From a virus, in the IMG/VR virus record IMGVR_UViG_3300027969_000001, positions 32,001 through 96,000 of that record: DNA of 64,000 bases. One strand, given 5' to 3'. Positions 5,473 to 34,400 of the stretch are shown one piece after another. Position numbers and translations under genes: made by a program. The notes beneath the pieces are model-generated. The model worked only from the letters and a program-made list of their open reading frames with translations, searched no databases and was not told the DNA's origin. Every line of letters begins with the position of its first letter. The first letter of the stretch is position 1.

Positions 5473-5964
5473 CTATTGTTCCTCTATTAGAGGGACCGCA
5501 TATCTTGCGATATCCATCTCTGACACTATCCTAGTGTAGGTCCGGCAGAAGGCTTCCCTGTCTGAGTTGGTGTGCATGCCGATTGCAGCATCCCCTAATT
5601 GTTTGACAGTTTCTTTCAGTGCTTCTGATACCCCAATAGAAGGAGCCATACCTGAGTTGACGTCTTTTTGTATGGTAATCCAAGTACCCCAAGCAGAAAG
5701 GGGGTCTTCGAATTGGGTCATTTTTGTGACCCTATTTATTGCGGTGCGGCGTATCTCTCCTGGGCGGGGGAGGAACTGCGCTTCTACAGCCAGAGTAAGG
5801 AATGCTGCCTTCGCATCCTTGTAATCCAAATCGTGCAACAAGTCGAACCAAGATGCATAAAGCAACTTAGTTGGTGCGGGTCCTACAGGGAGAGGGACAT
5901 TAAAGGTCATGTAGGCCTGGTCCACTAGTGAGCACAGCTCTTCTTTGGTCATTCGTTTATCCAT
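5473..5964 (-). CDS. Replicative helicase loader/inhibitor (SPP1 G39P-like)
   Basis: W-x-D-L-L-x-D-L-D-Y...F-L-P-x-P-G-E-I pattern; follows the initiator-like gene. Confidence 0.65.
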   Translation of the reverse strand: MDKRMTKEELCSLVDQAYMTFNVPLPVGPAPTKLLYASWFDLLHDLDYKDAKAAFLTLAVEAQFLPRPGEIRRTAINRVTKMTQFEDPLSAWGTWITIQKDVNSGMAPSIGVSEALKETVKQLGDAAIGMHTNSDREAFCRTYTRIVSEMDIARYAVPLIEEQ

Positions 5965-6332
5965 TCGTCTTTAGCTGAGGTTTCGCTCTGCTTGTCATGC
6001 AGCTCGAGGAACTTCTCTACATTGCCGGCGTTTCTGAATATGACTGACACATCGTTATAGGCCTGGCCCCTATTATTCTGGCCCATCCACCACGGGTCAT
6101 TGGCACAGCCGTCTATGGCATCCCTACAGGCTTCTACTCCATATACAGCAATTGCCCACCCGATATCTCTGTGGCGGTTTACATCGAGAGCAGCGCGGCG
6201 TTTGGTCTTGCCCATAGCTACCTTCCAGTACTCAAAGATTTCTTCTATTAGAACATTGGAGACAGTTTTGGCTAGGTCTCCCTTACTCCTATTGTGAGCG
6301 CTGGGACCTCTTACTTTTTTATCATCTACCAT
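5949..6332 (-). CDS. Phage replication-initiator C-terminal-like protein
   Basis: IFEYW...AIDGCANDPWWMG...IFRN.NVEKFL; paired with the loader. Confidence 0.6.
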   Translation of the reverse strand: MVDDKKVRGPSAHNRSKGDLAKTVSNVLIEEIFEYWKVAMGKTKRRAALDVNRHRDIGWAIAVYGVEACRDAIDGCANDPWWMGQNNRGQAYNDVSVIFRNAGNVEKFLELHDKQSETSAKDEWINE

Positions 6333-6627
6333 TTTATGAATCTATCCCTTAATTTGTGATTACACACAGAGTTCTCCTTAAGCCTGATGGAGAAGGCTAC
6401 GGTTTTGACGTTGGCTTCTTTTCCGTGGACGGAAGATGTTTCGCCTAGTGAAGGACGGTCGCTGCGCTCCCTTTTGGAGGGGGGTGTGGGGGGAACCTTT
6501 AGATTTGCTCCAGCGCCCACGCATGCTAATGCCCACCGAGTTGATTGGGTGGTACAAAGATGCTAAGAAGTGACATATGCCTATGTCATGTGAATCACAT
6601 TCAAGCTCTATTGAACTTGCGGAGGTG

Positions 6628-6656
6628 ATGGTAGCAGCATCATCCACCACCGTCAA
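6628..6656 (-). promoter_or_regulatory. Sigma70-type promoter TTGACG-N17-TACCAT; the spacer is a copy of motif C
   Basis: Read directly on the minus strand, upstream of the replication genes. Confidence 0.55.
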
Positions 6657-6767
6657 CCCCTAACGCGAGGAATCTTTTAAAAGCCGGCGAAATATTTTTT
6701 GTTGACGTGTTCGTGTCACGGTTCGGATAAGTCTTGACGCGCGCTCGAGCCGTTATGCTGCTAAATT

Positions 6768-6885
6768 GGCCGGGGCTTCTACGGGAGGGTTTACCCCTTT
6801 CGACCTCCTATGGAAGTAGGACCCTGGAGTTGAGTTTTCTGGAACGTTGGTAGGTGGCTTACCGGAAAACTCCTCCGGGGTTTCC
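6768..6885 (+). ncRNA. Candidate two-hairpin sRNA with loops antisense to accessory-gene leaders
   Basis: Intergenic; stems 6775-6817 and 6821-6881 use G-U pairs only on the + strand; TATGCT -10 at 6754. Confidence 0.55.
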
Positions 6886-6890
6886 CATCT

Positions 6891-7247
6891 CTACTCGTAG
6901 ACGTCCCAGTCAGGCCAGAACGGTCTGTTCTTTTTGTCTTTTATTTCCTTGGCGCGGCGGAATGCTGCCTTGCCCATGGATTCTTTATCGAAGTACGACC
7001 AATTGGGGTTGCCCATCATTTGTACATTGAGGGTTGACCTGAGGTCTTTGTCCATATGCTTGTGACCGTACTCATGATTCAACATCTCTTGAAGCTCTTC
7101 GTCTACCAGAGACGTCTGGGCCTCAACATATTTATTGAATTCTTTTGAGTACTTCTTCTGGGTCCTACGACGTTCGACAGATTTTGAGTCAAAAAACCAA
7201 ATAATTAGCGCAGCGATGGCCGCAGCTGTAATAGTGAATTGTTTCAT
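6891..7247 (-). CDS. Hypothetical protein with N-terminal membrane anchor
   Basis: Hydrophobic N-terminus; AGGAG RBS. Confidence 0.6.
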   Translation of the reverse strand: MKQFTITAAAIAALIIWFFDSKSVERRRTQKKYSKEFNKYVEAQTSLVDEELQEMLNHEYGHKHMDKDLRSTLNVQMMGNPNWSYFDKESMGKAAFRRAKEIKDKKNRPFWPDWDVYE

Positions 7248-10909: not shown

Positions 10910-10981
10910 AAAAAATCCTTTTTTTGATTAGTAATAGATAAGTGTCAGATGTGGTACATGAATAGATAAGTGAAACGCCAA

Positions 10982-11037
10982 TGTCTCTCGGCAATGTGTA
11001 GTACCCACCAAAGGAGAAACACGATTACCGAGAGACA
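10982..11037 (-). ncRNA. Hairpin with anti-Shine-Dalgarno loop (UUUCUCCUUUGGUGGGUA) in the 3' region of the MoxR/VWA operon
   Basis: 14-bp stem with a G-U pair on the minus strand. Confidence 0.4.
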
Positions 11038-11047
11038 CTAGCACCAG

Positions 11048-14830: not shown

Positions 14831-15499
14831 CTATTCCTCATCTTTCTTTTTCTTAGCGTTACCAAGTAGGTCGTGGTAACGGTGAGCAACTACGGCGAGT
14901 TTCATGTAGGCAGTGGTAGCACCCATAGCCTCAACCATGCGTCCGTACTCCTGACCTTCTTTTACTTCGCTTACATCTGCCATGTAATCTTCTTCCGAAT
15001 ACACAGGAACTCCAAAGTCATCGTAGCGATACATTTGAGTAGCACTACCAATCAACGAACCATCCCAGTCCATGCCAGTAACAACGATTGCTTCACGGAC
15101 TTCTGAAAAAGGATTCTCTGAAAAGTCTTTCTGCATTTCGCCACGCTCAAAGTCAATTTCTTCTGATGTGTCTGCACTACGGCAGAAACCCTCTACACAG
15201 AGAAAGAGGAAAGAGAACTCACGGATAGGCATAGCCTTGACTACATCTTCGTACGCCTCTAATACATCTTCACGGTGAATGAGTGGAATCATTGCAATCT
15301 TGTATGGAGAAGATAATTCGTTTTCTTCCTGATACTCAACTGCATCTTCGTCATCGCTCTTGTAAGCAACGAGCATGAGTGGGGGAGTGTCTGTCATCCC
15401 CTCGTCTTTGCACATTTGCTCTTTGGCGTACTTAGTACGGTCAAGAACATCCAGCATTATTTTTGACATTTCTTCTGAAATGGTTTCGTTGATAGCCAT
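14831..15499 (-). CDS. Hypothetical protein (start at MAINE)
   Basis: AAGGAG RBS; promoter at 15531. Confidence 0.7.
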   Translation of the reverse strand: MAINETISEEMSKIMLDVLDRTKYAKEQMCKDEGMTDTPPLMLVAYKSDDEDAVEYQEENELSSPYKIAMIPLIHREDVLEAYEDVVKAMPIREFSFLFLCVEGFCRSADTSEEIDFERGEMQKDFSENPFSEVREAIVVTGMDWDGSLIGSATQMYRYDDFGVPVYSEEDYMADVSEVKEGQEYGRMVEAMGATTAYMKLAVVAHRYHDLLGNAKKKKDEE

Positions 15500-15559
15500 T
15501 GGCTTTCTCCTTGTTGGTAGGTGTGCAGTCATCGTACCAGTACAGGTACAGAACTACAA

Positions 15560-18594: not shown

Positions 18595-18912
18595 TCACTC
18601 GGTCAGGAGATAATGCCCACCACGCCTCTCGTATTGAGCAGTAGCCTCAGTAACGGTTTCACGGTAATCACCATTCTCCATGTGCCAACCTTCGGGACGG
18701 TCTACGGCGTTCCACACTGCGAACGGGTGAAGCGTGTTGTGTGGCAAGAGACAGAGAACAACCCACACGGCGTAAGCGTCAATGTCAGACGGGCGAGAGA
18801 GCCAGCAAGCGAGAATGGTGACAGGATTACTGCCACTGCTAGGAGTGAATGTGTCACCCACTTTCAGCAATCGCATTGGGTATGTCTCGGTAGGGGACTT
18901 ATCTATTGACAT
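18595..18912 (-). CDS. Hypothetical protein (start at MSIDKS)
   Basis: TAATG coupling with the upstream gene. Confidence 0.55.
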   Translation of the reverse strand: MSIDKSPTETYPMRLLKVGDTFTPSSGSNPVTILACWLSRPSDIDAYAVWVVLCLLPHNTLHPFAVWNAVDRPEGWHMENGDYRETVTEATAQYERRGGHYLLTE

Positions 18913-19355
18913 TACTCGCCACCCAACCAAGCGTTCATCTGCTCATCTGTCATCTCGGTAATGGTTGGTCTGAAATCCATTTCAGCGATTTCTTTGGTCA
19001 GCATTTCTTTGATGACTTCCATCTCTGCGATTTCTTTCGCAAAGTCAAAAAAGCGTCCTGATGTGTAGGTTGCTGGAATGTCGTGGTTCTCTCCGTCATA
19101 CTCGCCACGCTCGTTGAGAGAGCCGATTACAACGCAGTCACCCACAAGTGGACGCTGGAACAACATAGACGCTACGGCGTTCACTGGTAGCCCGATAAGC
19201 AATCCTTCGTCATGGACATAGCCCACGATTTCTTCGCCTCGTACACAGTCAAACCAGCCACCCACGATTTCGTGAATGAGTGTGTGACCGTTCTCGCTTG
19301 GTATGTCCTGCGTGAATACTTCACCTGTGGACTTGATGATTATTGCTGTTGCCAT
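18912..19355 (-). CDS. DUF3846-like protein
   Basis: IVGGWF..V, V.DEGL..GLP.N..AS, LVGD.V..G. Confidence 0.75.
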   Translation of the reverse strand: MATAIIIKSTGEVFTQDIPSENGHTLIHEIVGGWFDCVRGEEIVGYVHDEGLLIGLPVNAVASMLFQRPLVGDCVVIGSLNERGEYDGENHDIPATYTSGRFFDFAKEIAEMEVIKEMLTKEIAEMDFRPTITEMTDEQMNAWLGGE

Positions 19356-19470
19356 GATGGCTCTCCTTGTTTGGTAGGTGTTGATAGCGTACCACTGTGG
19401 GTACAGAACTACTGGTGGACTTATCTATTGAGTAGTGGGGACTTCTCCCCACTACTCGCAGATGAATTGG

Positions 19471-19875
19471 TTAGACGGCTTCTGCTTTGCTCGCAGGCTT
19501 GACTGAACCTTTGGCAGGCTTCACGAGAACTCGCACACTGTTCGTGATTTCCACGCAGGACTTGATGACCTTCTTGGTGATTTCGCCCTTGCCTACTGCG
19601 CTGTCCCACGCCTTAGTGTCAATCGCTGGCTTGGTGACCTTGCGAAACAATGCTGGCGAAAGTTGCTCACGCAATTTCTCAACAGAGAACGAACGGCGTT
19701 CTGCTGGCGAGACTTTGACATTCAGTTCTGCGAACTCGGCTTCGCTCACGCCTGCGATTGCGAATGTTGCGATAAGCAACTCTCTCGCTTCGTCATGCGC
19801 CTGCTCGGCTTGCTCTTTGGCTGTTAGAGCAGTGAGAAAAGCCTCTACTGCTTGGTTGATTGTTTCTGCTTCCAT
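19471..19875 (-). CDS. Hypothetical coiled-coil phage protein (possibly Gam-like)
   Basis: AAAGGGG RBS; promoter at 19919. Confidence 0.65.
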   Translation of the reverse strand: MEAETINQAVEAFLTALTAKEQAEQAHDEARELLIATFAIAGVSEAEFAELNVKVSPAERRSFSVEKLREQLSPALFRKVTKPAIDTKAWDSAVGKGEITKKVIKSCVEITNSVRVLVKPAKGSVKPASKAEAV

Positions 19876-20408
19876 GATGTACCCCTTTCGTGGGTGTGTA
19901 TCGCTTGTGGTACCCACAAGCGTACACGGTCAGGTACAGAACTACAACCTTTTGACTTATCTATTTACAACTCCCCTCAACCCCTCACGGTTAGCCTCTT
20001 ATTTATCACGACCCCCCATGCCTCGCCTCTCCTTTTCGCCCCTTCTCGGTTGGAGCCCCGTTCTAGTCGGGCATCATCGGGGCTCCCTTCGGCAAACCCC
20101 CCGATAGGCAAGTTCGCATGGGGAGTAGAGATAGAAAAGTGAACGATTTGGATAAGCGCAGACTGGCTCGGATTTATGCTCGGCTCACAGAAGTAGAACG
20201 GCTAGTGAGTGCCGTGCGTCTGCTCAACAGTCAGACACGGGCAAGGTTAGAGCGAAGCAAGTTCGTACTCGTGGAGAACGACTTATCTATTCAGGTAGAA
20301 AACCAAAAAAGGGAGACTCATCTGTAATAGATAAGTCTCCCTCTTTGTTGGTGTGGGCGTTTCCCTTCTGAAAGGAAGGGGGGACAGAGGTACTAAGCCC
20401 TCGCTCAA

Positions 20409-23851: not shown

Positions 23852-24340
23852 TCAGACCTTTCCAGCACAGGTGCTACCCATGCCCCTAGCAACGCTCTTA
23901 GGGTCAGTTAGGTCTGCCCCACAGATAACGCACATTGAGTACAGCAAGCCAAGTTCAGCGCACTCGGCAATAGTCATACGCATACTCGCAGTAAGGCGAT
24001 AGAACGCCCCACGCTCAAAGACAATGCGCTCGGACTTCGTTGTGCCTTCGGGAACGAAACGCATGGCGTACATTCCTGATTTATCCTTGTTGTACTTCAC
24101 ACGATAAACAACGCCGTCAGCATTGCGATACATACCGATTTCGGTAACAGGGTCAAGGTTCGCAGGCGCACTCGCCTTAGCCTTCGCCATGCTCGCCTCT
24201 ACGGCTTCTATCTGCTTGATAGTGAGAGAGCCGAAACGGTCTAGCGAACTAAGTACGCTCGCATAGAACGAATTACTCTTAGCGTTCTCACGCAAGAAAT
24301 TAGCGATTATTTCTAATCGGTCTAGTGGTGGTGTGGTCAT
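23852..24340 (-). CDS. DUF6011-like Zn-finger protein
   Basis: CVICGADLTDPKSVARGMGSTC; promoter at 24374. Confidence 0.7.
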   Translation of the reverse strand: MTTPPLDRLEIIANFLRENAKSNSFYASVLSSLDRFGSLTIKQIEAVEASMAKAKASAPANLDPVTEIGMYRNADGVVYRVKYNKDKSGMYAMRFVPEGTTKSERIVFERGAFYRLTASMRMTIAECAELGLLYSMCVICGADLTDPKSVARGMGSTCAGKV

Positions 24341-24681
24341 GTCTTACCCCTTCTAAGTAGTTTGACTACTCGTACAATACCAGCAAAGGTACGGAACTAC
24401 TAGGGGACTTATCTATTCAGTATCGGCTCGCAGTATCCACTCGGATACGCTCGCAGTTGGCTCGCATACTTCGCTCGGACTTATCTATTCAGTAATCACC
24501 CACGCCTCGCACCTACCAGCACCAGCACTCTTTTTTATCTCTACCCCCGTTGCGCCCCCACCCGTCACTTCTCGGTGGGGGCCCCGTTCGCGCTGAGTCA
24601 TGCCGGGGCTCCCATCGGGCGCAAGGTCAAGCCTTGACCTACCCGTGAGAGTAAGTCAAGGCGAGACTATCTAGCACTTAT

Positions 24682-25116
24682 CTATTCAGGAAAGGCGCTA
24701 GCCCTTGCGAGTAATCCCGTAAGTATGCCGTCAGCGTAGTAGTCAGGCGCTGTGCCGTCTAGGTACTTGCCCAATGAGGCTAGGACTGTGCGCTCAAACT
24801 CGGCGAAGGACTTATCGCCGTAGCGCCCCACCGCTTGCGTGGCAAACTTGGTAGCAGGGTAGGTAGCGAAGTCAAAGACGGTAAATGATGTCACGCTCAT
24901 GGTGGCGTGTGGTTGCCAGTGAACTAGACGGATAGTTGCCTCATACTGCTTGCGCTTAGCGTCATGGCTGAACTCAAGTTCTATTTGCTCACCCCACAAG
25001 TCATTGCTGTGGACATGCGGAATGTCTACCTTTGAGGACTGCCAACGGTAGGTGACCTCACGGTCACGCTCACGGCGCTTGGCTTGCGCTAGTAGGTTGG
25101 TGGTTGCTGTGGTCAT
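24682..25116 (-). CDS. Hypothetical protein
   Basis: GAAGGGG RBS; promoter at 25149. Confidence 0.7.
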   Translation of the reverse strand: MTTATTNLLAQAKRRERDREVTYRWQSSKVDIPHVHSNDLWGEQIELEFSHDAKRKQYEATIRLVHWQPHATMSVTSFTVFDFATYPATKFATQAVGRYGDKSFAEFERTVLASLGKYLDGTAPDYYADGILTGLLARASAFPE

Positions 25117-25487
25117 GGTTACCCCTTCATGGTTGTTTGACTACTCGCATAGTACCATCGTAGGTACGGAACTACTGTGGGACTTATCTATTACCGATAC
25201 GCTCACGCCTCGCCACTCGGCAACCCCCGATAGTTGGGCTTATCTATCTCAACCCCCGTCACAGCCTCGGAGTCTCTCGGACTCTTACGGTTGGAGCCCC
25301 GTTCGCGCTCGGTTCCCTCGGGGCTCCCATCGGGAAGGGCGCTTCCCTACTCTTGGGGGTCGTGATAAAAAAGTTTCATCTAATCGGTCAGGGTCTTTCT
25401 TTCATAGATAAGTCTCGGTGGAGGTTTGTACCTCACCATGTACTCTGTGTCCAGTTGGGGGATGGTCTCCCAGCAGGAAGGGATGCC

Positions 25488-30908: not shown

Positions 30909-31149
30909 GTAATAGATAAGTCCCCCGAGCACCCCCCGCTCGGGGGATTTTCTTTGCCCGTGACCCAGCCCGTACTTGTAATAGATAAGTCCCCTGTTGT
31001 GATGAAGCCCCGTCTTCGGCGGAGTCCGTTCGTCTCCGACGGGGCTCTCATCGGCGAGCGAGCGAGAGTGCATTGGGGGTCGTGATAAAAAAGTGTAGGT
31101 CTGTACCTAGTGCAGTACAGTGTGGTCATACCAACGGAAGGGGTACGAG

Positions 31150-31656
31150 ATGCCAAAGACGGCTCTACAAGTAAAGACCACAGGTGAAGTAGTAATGCTT
31201 GACCTAGAGGGTGACGAACTAGCAACACTGCAGAGTGCAGTGGGCGGATACATTGAAGCAATAAACTTCACCAACTCGCTGACTATGTGGTGCAACGAAG
31301 AAGGCAAACTAGACGGTCTCTCGCAGAACATCATTGCTCAACACTTCTATGACAATGCATACGGTGCAGGGCGTGACATTATCGTGGGTGATGTTGTATT
31401 CACTGGCGGTGCTGATGATGAAGGTGACACAATGGGTCTCCGTGAAGAATTGGTCAAAGACATTCACGAAGTAGCCGAGCGTCTTGCTCGCTCCGCAGTG
31501 TTCATCACCAAGGCAGAGACGAAGAAGGTCATGAGCTGGCAAGACCATCTCGGTGACGCTCCTATGACAGAGGAGAATGTGTGGCAGGCAATTGCTGATG
31601 CGAATGACCTTGACTACGACGAAATTGCTGACGGCGATTTATTTGAGTGGCTCTAG
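31150..31656 (+). CDS. DUF3846-like protein (paralog of 18912..19355)
   Basis: LQSAVGGYIE, CNEEGKL, IVGDVVFTG. Confidence 0.8.
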   Translation: MPKTALQVKTTGEVVMLDLEGDELATLQSAVGGYIEAINFTNSLTMWCNEEGKLDGLSQNIIAQHFYDNAYGAGRDIIVGDVVFTGGADDEGDTMGLREELVKDIHEVAERLARSAVFITKAETKKVMSWQDHLGDAPMTEENVWQAIADANDLDYDEIADGDLFEWL

Positions 31657-31743
31657 CGCTCAATTATTGGTAATAGATAAGTGCCAATTGTAGGTCTGAA
31701 CCTACGGTGGTACTGTGTGGTCACCTAAGGAAAGGGGTACGCA

Positions 31744-32085
31744 ATGTCATCAGACATTACATTCATCAACAGAGTGCAGGAAGCACTCACGGCAGGCAAG
31801 GTTATCGGGGACGGGCACACTCTGTTCGCTCCCGAGTTCTACGAGCCGTACTTCACGGCAGAGGAACTCTCTAGCCTTATTCGTAAGCACGAATCTCACG
31901 GCTCGTGGAAATCCACCATCTTTGACGAGGACGGCAATGTCATTCCTGAATTAGAGGCTATCTACAATCTAGATTTTCTCTACTGGCTCGCAGGGCAACT
32001 CGGAGTGACGGAGCGCACCACAGCGAACGGCAGAGGCTCGCAGGCTCAGCAACTCGTAGGGTACATCAGAGAAATACTGGTCTAA
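31744..32085 (+). CDS. Hypothetical protein
   Basis: AAAGGGG RBS; promoter at 31690. Confidence 0.65.
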   Translation: MSSDITFINRVQEALTAGKVIGDGHTLFAPEFYEPYFTAEELSSLIRKHESHGSWKSTIFDEDGNVIPELEAIYNLDFLYWLAGQLGVTERTTANGRGSQAQQLVGYIREILV

Positions 32086-34321: not shown

Positions 34322-34400
34322 TGGTTTCTCCTCCTTGGCTTAATGACTGAATGATACCCATAGGTGCACATTTACGCAAACGCAGTGTAGGATAAATTAT

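Follow-up and report, generated by a model that had tools for sequence, protein, structure and literature searches.

The c4 antisense RNA of phages P1 and P7 recognizes two sites with two loop sequences, arises by processing of the leader of the operon under its control, and has essentially one target operon. In c4 (immI), complements exposed in loops pair with the leader of the target in the region of the ribosome-binding site (RBS), and translation is blocked (PMC12197685). The RNA described here is likewise phage-encoded and structured and follows the same two-loop, two-site logic around the RBS; unlike c4, it has its own promoter motif, its proposed targets are ~10–20 separately promoted cassettes, it shows no homology to c4 in sequence or structure, in view of the lack of an Rfam match (E up to 10), and its host is probably actinobacterial, whereas the host of c4 is enterobacterial. 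As with c4, the loops are complementary, in silico, to leader sites that include the RBS, with the sites in the same order as pairing requires in three genomes and with a fit better than that of shuffles in five. C-rich anti-Shine-Dalgarno (anti-SD) motifs in hairpin loops also serve sRNAs of the RsaE/RoxS type, in Firmicutes, to repress a multi-target regulon at translation initiation. The present RNA shares the C-rich anti-SD hairpin loop with that type, which, in contrast, is bacterial, has no second loop, rich in G/U, for reading a leader box 5′ of the SD, and shows no homology. To our knowledge, Actinobacteria lack Hfq, and few phage-encoded trans-acting sRNAs are known. The 6C (B11) sRNA of Actinobacteria is short and consists of stable hairpins; its C-rich loops bind G-rich stretches of mRNA with no need of Hfq or ProQ (PMC6486639). 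Loop 1 of the present RNA is similarly C-rich (CCCC/CCCCC; 4–5 consecutive C), and the host phylum is likely the same; however, each binding loop of 6C is C-rich, whereas loop 2 of the present RNA is G/U-rich, contains no C run, and would target an ACC-rich box, and 6C is chromosomal, whereas the present element did not turn up when prokaryote genomes were scanned by loop pattern, and it matches no Rfam model. Lambda OOP and P22 sar are short phage transcripts that have their own promoter and run opposite to, and converge on, a neighbor gene (PMC12197685). The present RNA resembles them in its own putative promoter and in converging on a neighboring gene; but OOP and sar act on the overlapping transcript by full complementarity, so that their sequences are free to drift with the target, whereas the loops of the present RNA are frozen and its convergent overlap is not conserved, which points to trans targets. 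The phage sRNAs covered in the same review are enterobacterial or from other Gram-negative systems; actinobacteria and mycobacteriophages are absent from it (PMC12197685). We conclude that the RNA family is undescribed and that it puts a known principle to use in a new way: it couples a promoter of its own to two unlike loops and may control many separately promoted cassettes.

The window, that is, the whole stretch of 64,000 nucleotides that we analyzed, comprises bases 32001–96000 of a 158,714-bp virus record that has direct terminal repeats. The RNA element sits in a ~560-nt non-coding gap (558 nt between called genes) with a minus-strand gene on each side: at 6891–7247 (−), a gene for a 118-aa protein to which no function is assigned, and at 5949–6332 (−), a gene for a 127-aa protein with weak similarity to phage replication-initiation proteins. 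Gene callers place zero genes within the 558-nt gap on near-identical contigs. The blastn search of GenBank phages with the region returned no resembling record, and the search of IMG/VR for related loci, using the 118-aa protein and using the primase, returned no match. The primase is closest (~30–34% identity) to proteins of Arthrobacter, Microbacterium, and Gordonia phages, and a WhiB-family gene lies near the RNA locus in relatives, which together point to an actinobacterium as the probable host. The source samples, judged by their names, look like freshwater lake metagenomes.

Several features of the surroundings lie outside the RNA. Divergent from the RNA gene, a sigma-70-like promoter, TTGACG-17-TACCAT (6628–6663, −), lies within a repeated motif, TCATCCACCACCGTCA, and faces the replication-initiator-like operon; the TCATCCACCACCGTCA motif beside the RNA gene is kept in all relatives. 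Seven co-oriented copies of TCATCCACCACCGTCA-N5-TAA are present (6640–6663, 7962, 8655, 10237, 16540, 18360, and 21751), and the copy at 6640 is the one that overlaps the promoter facing the replication genes. The remainder of the non-coding gap, 6333–6770, is also strongly conserved: a block TTGGAGGGGGGT-N2-3-GGGGGGAACCTTT (~6474–6500) is kept, except for its 2–3-nt spacer, in the relatives examined, including the group at 52–58% identity described below, and is followed by a CCACC-loop-GGTGG hairpin. Rfam finds no match in this part of the gap, which could serve as an origin or as an extended, structured leader for the replication operon. An ion-channel-like gene (Pfam Ion_trans / Ion_trans_2) lies upstream of that for the 118-aa protein; its called product is 125 aa in contigs L003 and L005 and 73 aa in contig L002, and since the phages of L002 and L003 are near-identical, the discrepancy may come from a different start or a frameshift.

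The RNA gene, as modelled from covariance models and compensatory changes, occupies 6771–6891 (+) and is ~115 nt long, with predicted ends that place the likely transcript from ~6773–6775 to ~6885–6897. It comprises hairpin 1 (6775–6817, +), with a loop at 6789–6803 and an invariant, anti-SD-like core, CCCCUUUCG, at 6794–6802, and hairpin 2 (6819–6883, +), with a loop at 6843–6861 and an invariant core, GUUGGUAGGUGGC, at 6846–6858. The motifs that had drawn attention to the locus in a preliminary description fall in the loops of both + strand hairpins. The + strand folds with −52.5 kcal/mol (z −2.4), and the minus strand with −37.6 kcal/mol (z −1.2). Immediately upstream is an extended −10 element, TGCTAAATT (TGn + TAnnTT; 6759–6767, +), that is kept in all variants: the motif TGnTA(A/T)(A/T/G)TT ends 2–3 nt before a conserved 5′ CGGGGC in every one, and the surrounding spacer varies. 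A −35-like hexamer, TTGACG (6735–6740, +), lies 22 nt upstream of the −10 element, where the usual spacing is 17 nt; all variants carry such a box (TTGACG, TTTACA, TTGCAA, TTGCGA, or TTTACG), at a non-canonical spacing of 21–23 nt. We rejected the cassette 'Box A' promoter as an element of this upstream region: GATAAGTC occurs at 6726, but as an isolated copy with the remainder of the box absent, and isolated copies of GATAAGTC number ~9 versus ~5 expected by chance.

Downstream of the G+C-rich hairpin 2 is a pyrimidine-rich 3′ tail (6884–6897, +) that abuts the stop codon, 6891–6893, of the convergent 118-aa gene, and hairpin 2 and the tail together probably form an imperfect intrinsic terminator. 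The corresponding 3′ tails in relatives include GCUUUCUC and CGCUUUUCAC, and that of L019, AUUUAUUUUG, is the most U-rich. A consensus terminator scan finds none at 6775–6890 on either strand, and a better-looking terminator at 6911–6927 (+) was rejected as the RNA's own since it is not kept in L005. With two hairpins that carry 9- and 13-nt invariant loop cores, the element does not belong to the class of intrinsic terminators only. Searches for known RNA classes gave no assignment: Rfam 15 (4227 models, with tRNA, tmRNA, 6S, SRP, Y RNA, and ribozymes among them), run over the whole window at gathering thresholds, reports only two tRNAs, at 43.9–44.1 kb; permissive Rfam scans of 6250–7000 (E up to 10) return only noise of <18 bits; and ARAGORN finds neither a tRNA nor a tmRNA at the RNA locus. 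A coding reading of the + strand, as a 39-aa open reading frame at 6734–6853, was likewise rejected, because its start lies upstream of the −10 element and the stems of the family carry 1–2-nt indels.

Comparison across relatives supports the modelled structure. We obtained 10 distinct versions of the element (L052 among them) from ~15 metagenomic and IMG/VR contigs of related 145–158 kb phages, which were reached via homologs of two flanking proteins and then by loop-pattern scans. One group of relatives carries the 118-aa protein at 96%, 86%, and 59% identity, and a second group carries the replication-initiator-like protein at 52–58% identity; all of these flanking-protein relatives keep a non-coding gap, of 560–1000 nt, with the RNA element within it. 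The loop-pattern scans yielded 8 further IMG/VR contigs, 4 of them near-complete genomes of 145–158 kb, and one more variant; scans with loop patterns that included window-specific flanks yielded no match or an identical copy only. The pairwise 14-mer Jaccard index among five complete genomes is ≤0.03, and conservation of the RNA is therefore not due to recent common descent. Six versions, folded individually, each give the same two hairpins. In an alignment of 9 distinct sequences, which was fitted to the covariance model and with which the independent folds concur, pairing holds in 93.8% of cells, and compensatory double changes are seen in 21 of 35 pairs (8 of 13 in the stem of hairpin 1 and 13 of 22 in the stem of hairpin 2), so that the covariation in relatives that the preliminary description had proposed as a check is indeed present. 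None of 500 shuffles reaches these pairing and double-change values, and a control in which the pairing partners were slid by 1–3 columns gives 5–8 double-change pairs. The loops behave differently from the stems: that is, the cores CCCCUUUC (loop 1) and GUUGGUAGGUGGC (loop 2) are invariant in 10 of 10 variants, as are a UU bulge and GAG/CUC pairs of hairpin 2.

The same comparison defines the strand of the RNA. Across the family, G·U cells outnumber A·C cells 26 to 3, and the window's own structure contains 7 G·U and 0 A·C, in agreement with the preliminary description, which had noted stem G-U pairs only on the + strand; in 6 of 6 versions the + strand fold is the stabler one, by 5–16 kcal/mol. 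From the 26:3 asymmetry it follows that the RNA is the + strand, and the orientation of the RNA gene is thus opposite to that of the flanking genes. With two covariance models (R1 and R2), a single copy per genome is found in the window, G001, and G003. Among 185,579 prokaryote species genomes scanned by loop pattern, there was a single hit, in a Paludibacteraceae genome (L028), which does not match the covariance models and was rejected as a chance hit; in the searches made, the RNA element was found solely on phage-sized viral and metagenomic contigs. We conclude, with high confidence, that a structured RNA gene exists on the + strand.

We then asked what the invariant loops match. The preliminary description had reported that loop 1 is complementary to the RBS of gene 19471..19875, and this complementarity is confirmed: TACCCCTTTCG (6792–6802) recurs at 19880–19890, which reads CGAAAGGGGTA on the minus strand, 4 nt ahead of the ATG at 19875, and the predicted loop-1 site there, CGAAAGGGGUA (19880–19890, −), is the SD of that gene (−19.3 kcal/mol). 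The partial loop-1 matches reported before four further genes are also as described: AAGGGGTA precedes the starts at 24340, 25116, 31150, and 31744. The corresponding predicted sites are AAGGGGUAA at 24344–24352 (−), the SD of the DUF6011 gene starting at 24340; AAGGGGUAA at 25119–25127 (−), the SD of the gene starting at 25116; and GAAAGGGGUA at 31730–31739 (+), the SD of the gene starting at 31744 (−19.5 kcal/mol). Before the DUF3846 gene starting at 31150, the predicted site is bipartite: that is, UACCAACG + G + AAGGGGUA (31129–31145, +), a loop-2 complement and then a loop-1 complement. For loop 2, complements had been reported in the leaders of genes 14831..15499 (11 nt) and 18912..19355 (10 nt), and both are present. 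GTTGGTAGGTG (6846–6856) recurs at 15513–15523, in the leader of the gene starting at 15499, where the predicted site, CACCUACCAAC (15513–15523, −), forms the 5′ end of the leader with the SD, AAGGAG, directly after (duplex −23.2 kcal/mol); a 10-nt version of GTTGGTAGGTG lies at 19371–19380 (−), a predicted loop-2 site in the leader of the DUF3846 gene starting at 19355. Since the leaders of the 15499 and 19355 genes are paralogous, these two loop-2 matches count as one event, not two.

When up to 1 mismatch is allowed, the window contains 4 matches, versus 0.75 and 0.86 expected, and 0 of 100 shuffles reach 4. Over the whole 158.7-kb genome, exact matches of at least 10 nt, self excluded, number 4 for loop 1 and 2 for loop 2, where chance gives 2.4 and 3.6; the genome-wide count of loop complements of at least 10 nt is thus at about chance level, and the excess is therefore positional, at leaders. 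The preliminary reading of the element as a shut-off RNA for the cassettes stands in part: the element is a structured + strand RNA gene and its loops fit cassette leaders, but the exact 10–11-nt matches with which the reading began occur genome-wide at chance. The positional excess becomes convincing only with its repetition in four other genomes.

The window between 10.5 and 32 kb is an array of small-gene cassettes with a common grammar. We defined the cassette leader, independently of the RNA, as the stretch from the promoter box (TCTGWMCC-N7-GGTAnnnT) to the next start codon with an open frame; the box is recognizable in 5 of 5 genomes, and the consensus of the leaders is ...CCACC(U)ACCAACC|GAAAGGGG...AUG. 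The mean duplex energy of the loop cores with cassette leaders beats that of composition-matched shuffled loop cores in each of the five genomes. Pooled over the four genomes that lay outside the forming of the hypothesis, loop 2 gives z −3.0, with 1 of 300 shuffles as good, and loop 1 gives z −3.6, with 6 of 300 shuffles as good, about the number of identical permutations expected. In G000, G001, and G003, the best loop-2 duplex site of the cassette leaders lies immediately 5′ of the best loop-1 site, which is the SD. Loop 1 precedes loop 2 in the RNA, and antiparallel pairing thus needs a loop-2 site 5′ of the loop-1 site, as found. Compared with other SD-bearing leaders, cassette leaders are predicted to bind loop 2 better (p = 5e-4, 9e-3, and 2e-5), and the same comparison for loop 1 gives p = 0.09, 0.03, and 3e-7. 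Because leaders are paralogous within and between genomes, these tests hold fewer independent data points than leaders. The predicted target genes encode small proteins without assigned function, including DUF3846 and DUF6011 proteins. A conserved seed is thus set, in silico, against sites in several mRNAs, as for a trans-acting sRNA, in 10 variants and five genomes.

More stringent descriptions of the target fit less well. When the target is modelled as a rigid, contiguous stretch of 22 nt, G000 shows no enrichment, and G001 and G003 show only a weak one. The variable 5′ flank of loop 1 co-varies with the nucleotides after GGGG in the SD in G000 (UA), and such co-variation is not clear in G001 and G003. 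In relatives, exact copies of the 12-nt loop-2 complement are confined to the RNA gene itself, with two one-mismatch matches besides, so that pairing would rest on imperfect duplexes of 7–11 bp. The ACC-rich, G-poor leaders and the GAAAGG(G/A)G SDs could have been selected for translation alone.

Two further observations concern the cassettes. In G001–G004, the leader of one orthologous cassette gene (e.g. at ~37.9 kb in G003) is GUCCCUACCAACCGCUUACAAAGGAGCAAAC and carries a 10-nt loop-2 complement; it is near-identical in G002 and G003 and recognizably kept in G001 and G004, and among candidate conserved targets it is a good one to consider first. The 10-mer ATAGATAAGT occurs in ~70 exact copies on both strands, almost confined to 3.7–40.3 kb of the window (35.7–72.3 kb of the genome), and in G001 and G003 the variant boxes AGGTGTAGGTAAGT and TAGGTAGATAAGT stand at the equivalent positions.

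The reading that we favor, and hold with moderate confidence, is that the RNA acts in trans as an anti-leader sRNA and occludes the SD site of cassette mRNAs: the invariant loops match the RBS leaders of the cassettes, and the RNA would thus probably switch those genes off. According to this hypothesis, a phage sRNA of ~115 nt would be transcribed from an extended −10 promoter of its own, against the direction of the flanking genes, and its two long hairpins would display two invariant single-stranded loops. Loop 1, CCCCUUUC, which resembles the 16S rRNA 3′ end, would pair with the GAAAGGGG-type SD and occlude SDs of the GGGG type; loop 2, GUUGGUAGGUGGC, would read the ACC-rich box CCACC(U)ACCAACC directly 5′ of the SD and would confer specificity. 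With the two-part site clamped, 30S binding would be blocked, and translation of many independently promoted accessory cassettes would be shut down together; the many targets would account for loops that are frozen despite drifting stems. Precedents for such a mechanism are the chaperone-free pairing of 6C through its C-rich loops and the recognition of a leader by the loops of c4. What we infer is that the RNA is transcribed, that it pairs in vivo, and that repression results.

According to a second explanation, the sRNA is the same but its loops are held fixed by host targets, such as strong-SD mRNAs, rRNA, or tRNA, and the match to phage leaders is secondary. In its favor, the loops are invariant among phages whose own leaders differ in detail, and both loops have host-like features: loop 1 mimics the 16S anti-SD tail, of which we take it to be a near copy, with CCCC replacing CUCC, one position off the canonical CCUCCUUUC; loop 2 contains an SD-like AGGUGG and a D-loop-like GUUGGUAG, which is the D-loop of tRNA genes in G001 and G003 (sites CTACCAAC adjoining GAGCTA). 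Consistent with host targets, too, no leader seen in relatives lies within 1 mismatch of the 12-nt loop-2 complement, the two one-mismatch matches left aside. However, the match is specific to leaders with the cassette promoter, rather than general to SD-bearing leaders, both loops match those leaders colinearly, and the loop-pattern scan found no copy of the element in the 185,579 prokaryote species genomes. We consider host targets an unlikely explanation of the loops.

Invariant loops on freely varying stems are also the signature of hairpins recognized by protein, and a third explanation accordingly makes the element a structured RNA that binds a protein or the ribosome, as decoy, sponge, or scaffold, with the loops as protein-recognition or rRNA-mimic elements. 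The invariant UU bulge and GAG/CUC box of hairpin 2, which mRNA pairing does not explain, would find a role here. The ordered complementarity of both loops to a single leader class would nevertheless be left unexplained, and there is no linked partner gene, since the neighbors of the element vary among relatives except for the replication operon. This explanation appears distinctly unlikely.

Very unlikely is an action in cis, as bidirectional terminator or insulator, as antisense to read-through, or as hairpins of a single-stranded-DNA origin: the element does always have the end of a minus-strand operon on one side and, on the other, the divergent promoter of the replication-initiator-like gene, that gene and a conserved non-coding region of 560–1000 nt lie next to it and bring an origin to mind, the entire gap is unusually conserved, and in the window hairpin 2 directly adjoins the convergent gene's stop codon, but terminators and insulators need no invariant 9–13-nt loops, cis-antisense pairs co-vary automatically and would not freeze loops, the distance to the stop of the convergent gene ranges from 0 to >400 nt in relatives, the G·U:A·C asymmetry and the conserved −10 element at fixed distance favor a + strand transcript, and the loops fit the leader of the replication operon next door no better than shuffles do.

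The genome contains a second conserved anti-SD hairpin, at 10978–11043 (−), after a VWA/MoxR-like gene of 515 aa. Its stem is very stable (−40.5 kcal/mol, z −7.7), and its loop contains CUCCUUUGGUGGGUA. In 4 of 4 relatives, an ortholog of the 515-aa protein (62–65% identity) is followed by a hairpin, at syntenic sites (G001, ~14.7 kb; G002, ~99.9 kb; G003, ~35.5 kb; G004, ~9.1 kb), with a stem that differs and a loop core, CUCCUUU(G/U), that is the same. This hairpin may be an anti-leader RNA derived from a 3′ untranslated region. The hairpin near 34400, in a 91-nt fold, is no better than shuffles (z ~0).

As a tentative extension of the anti-leader reading, possible rather than probable, the one two-loop phage sRNA might be the master post-transcriptional switch of the cassette array, reading the ACC-rich box together with the variant GGGG SD. 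It would pair perfectly with this SD, with which 16S rRNA pairs only via wobble, and would thus out-compete the ribosome on cassette mRNAs, and it might form, with the second anti-SD hairpin, an RNA-based temporal program in large uncultured freshwater actinophages. The covariation is unusually clean, and the shared leader 'address' defines a target set that can be tested. If the anti-leader reading is true, a large phage would co-regulate dozens of horizontally shuffled cassettes after transcription, and the two-loop layout of the RNA would provide a compact means of programming the repression of translation in Actinobacteria.
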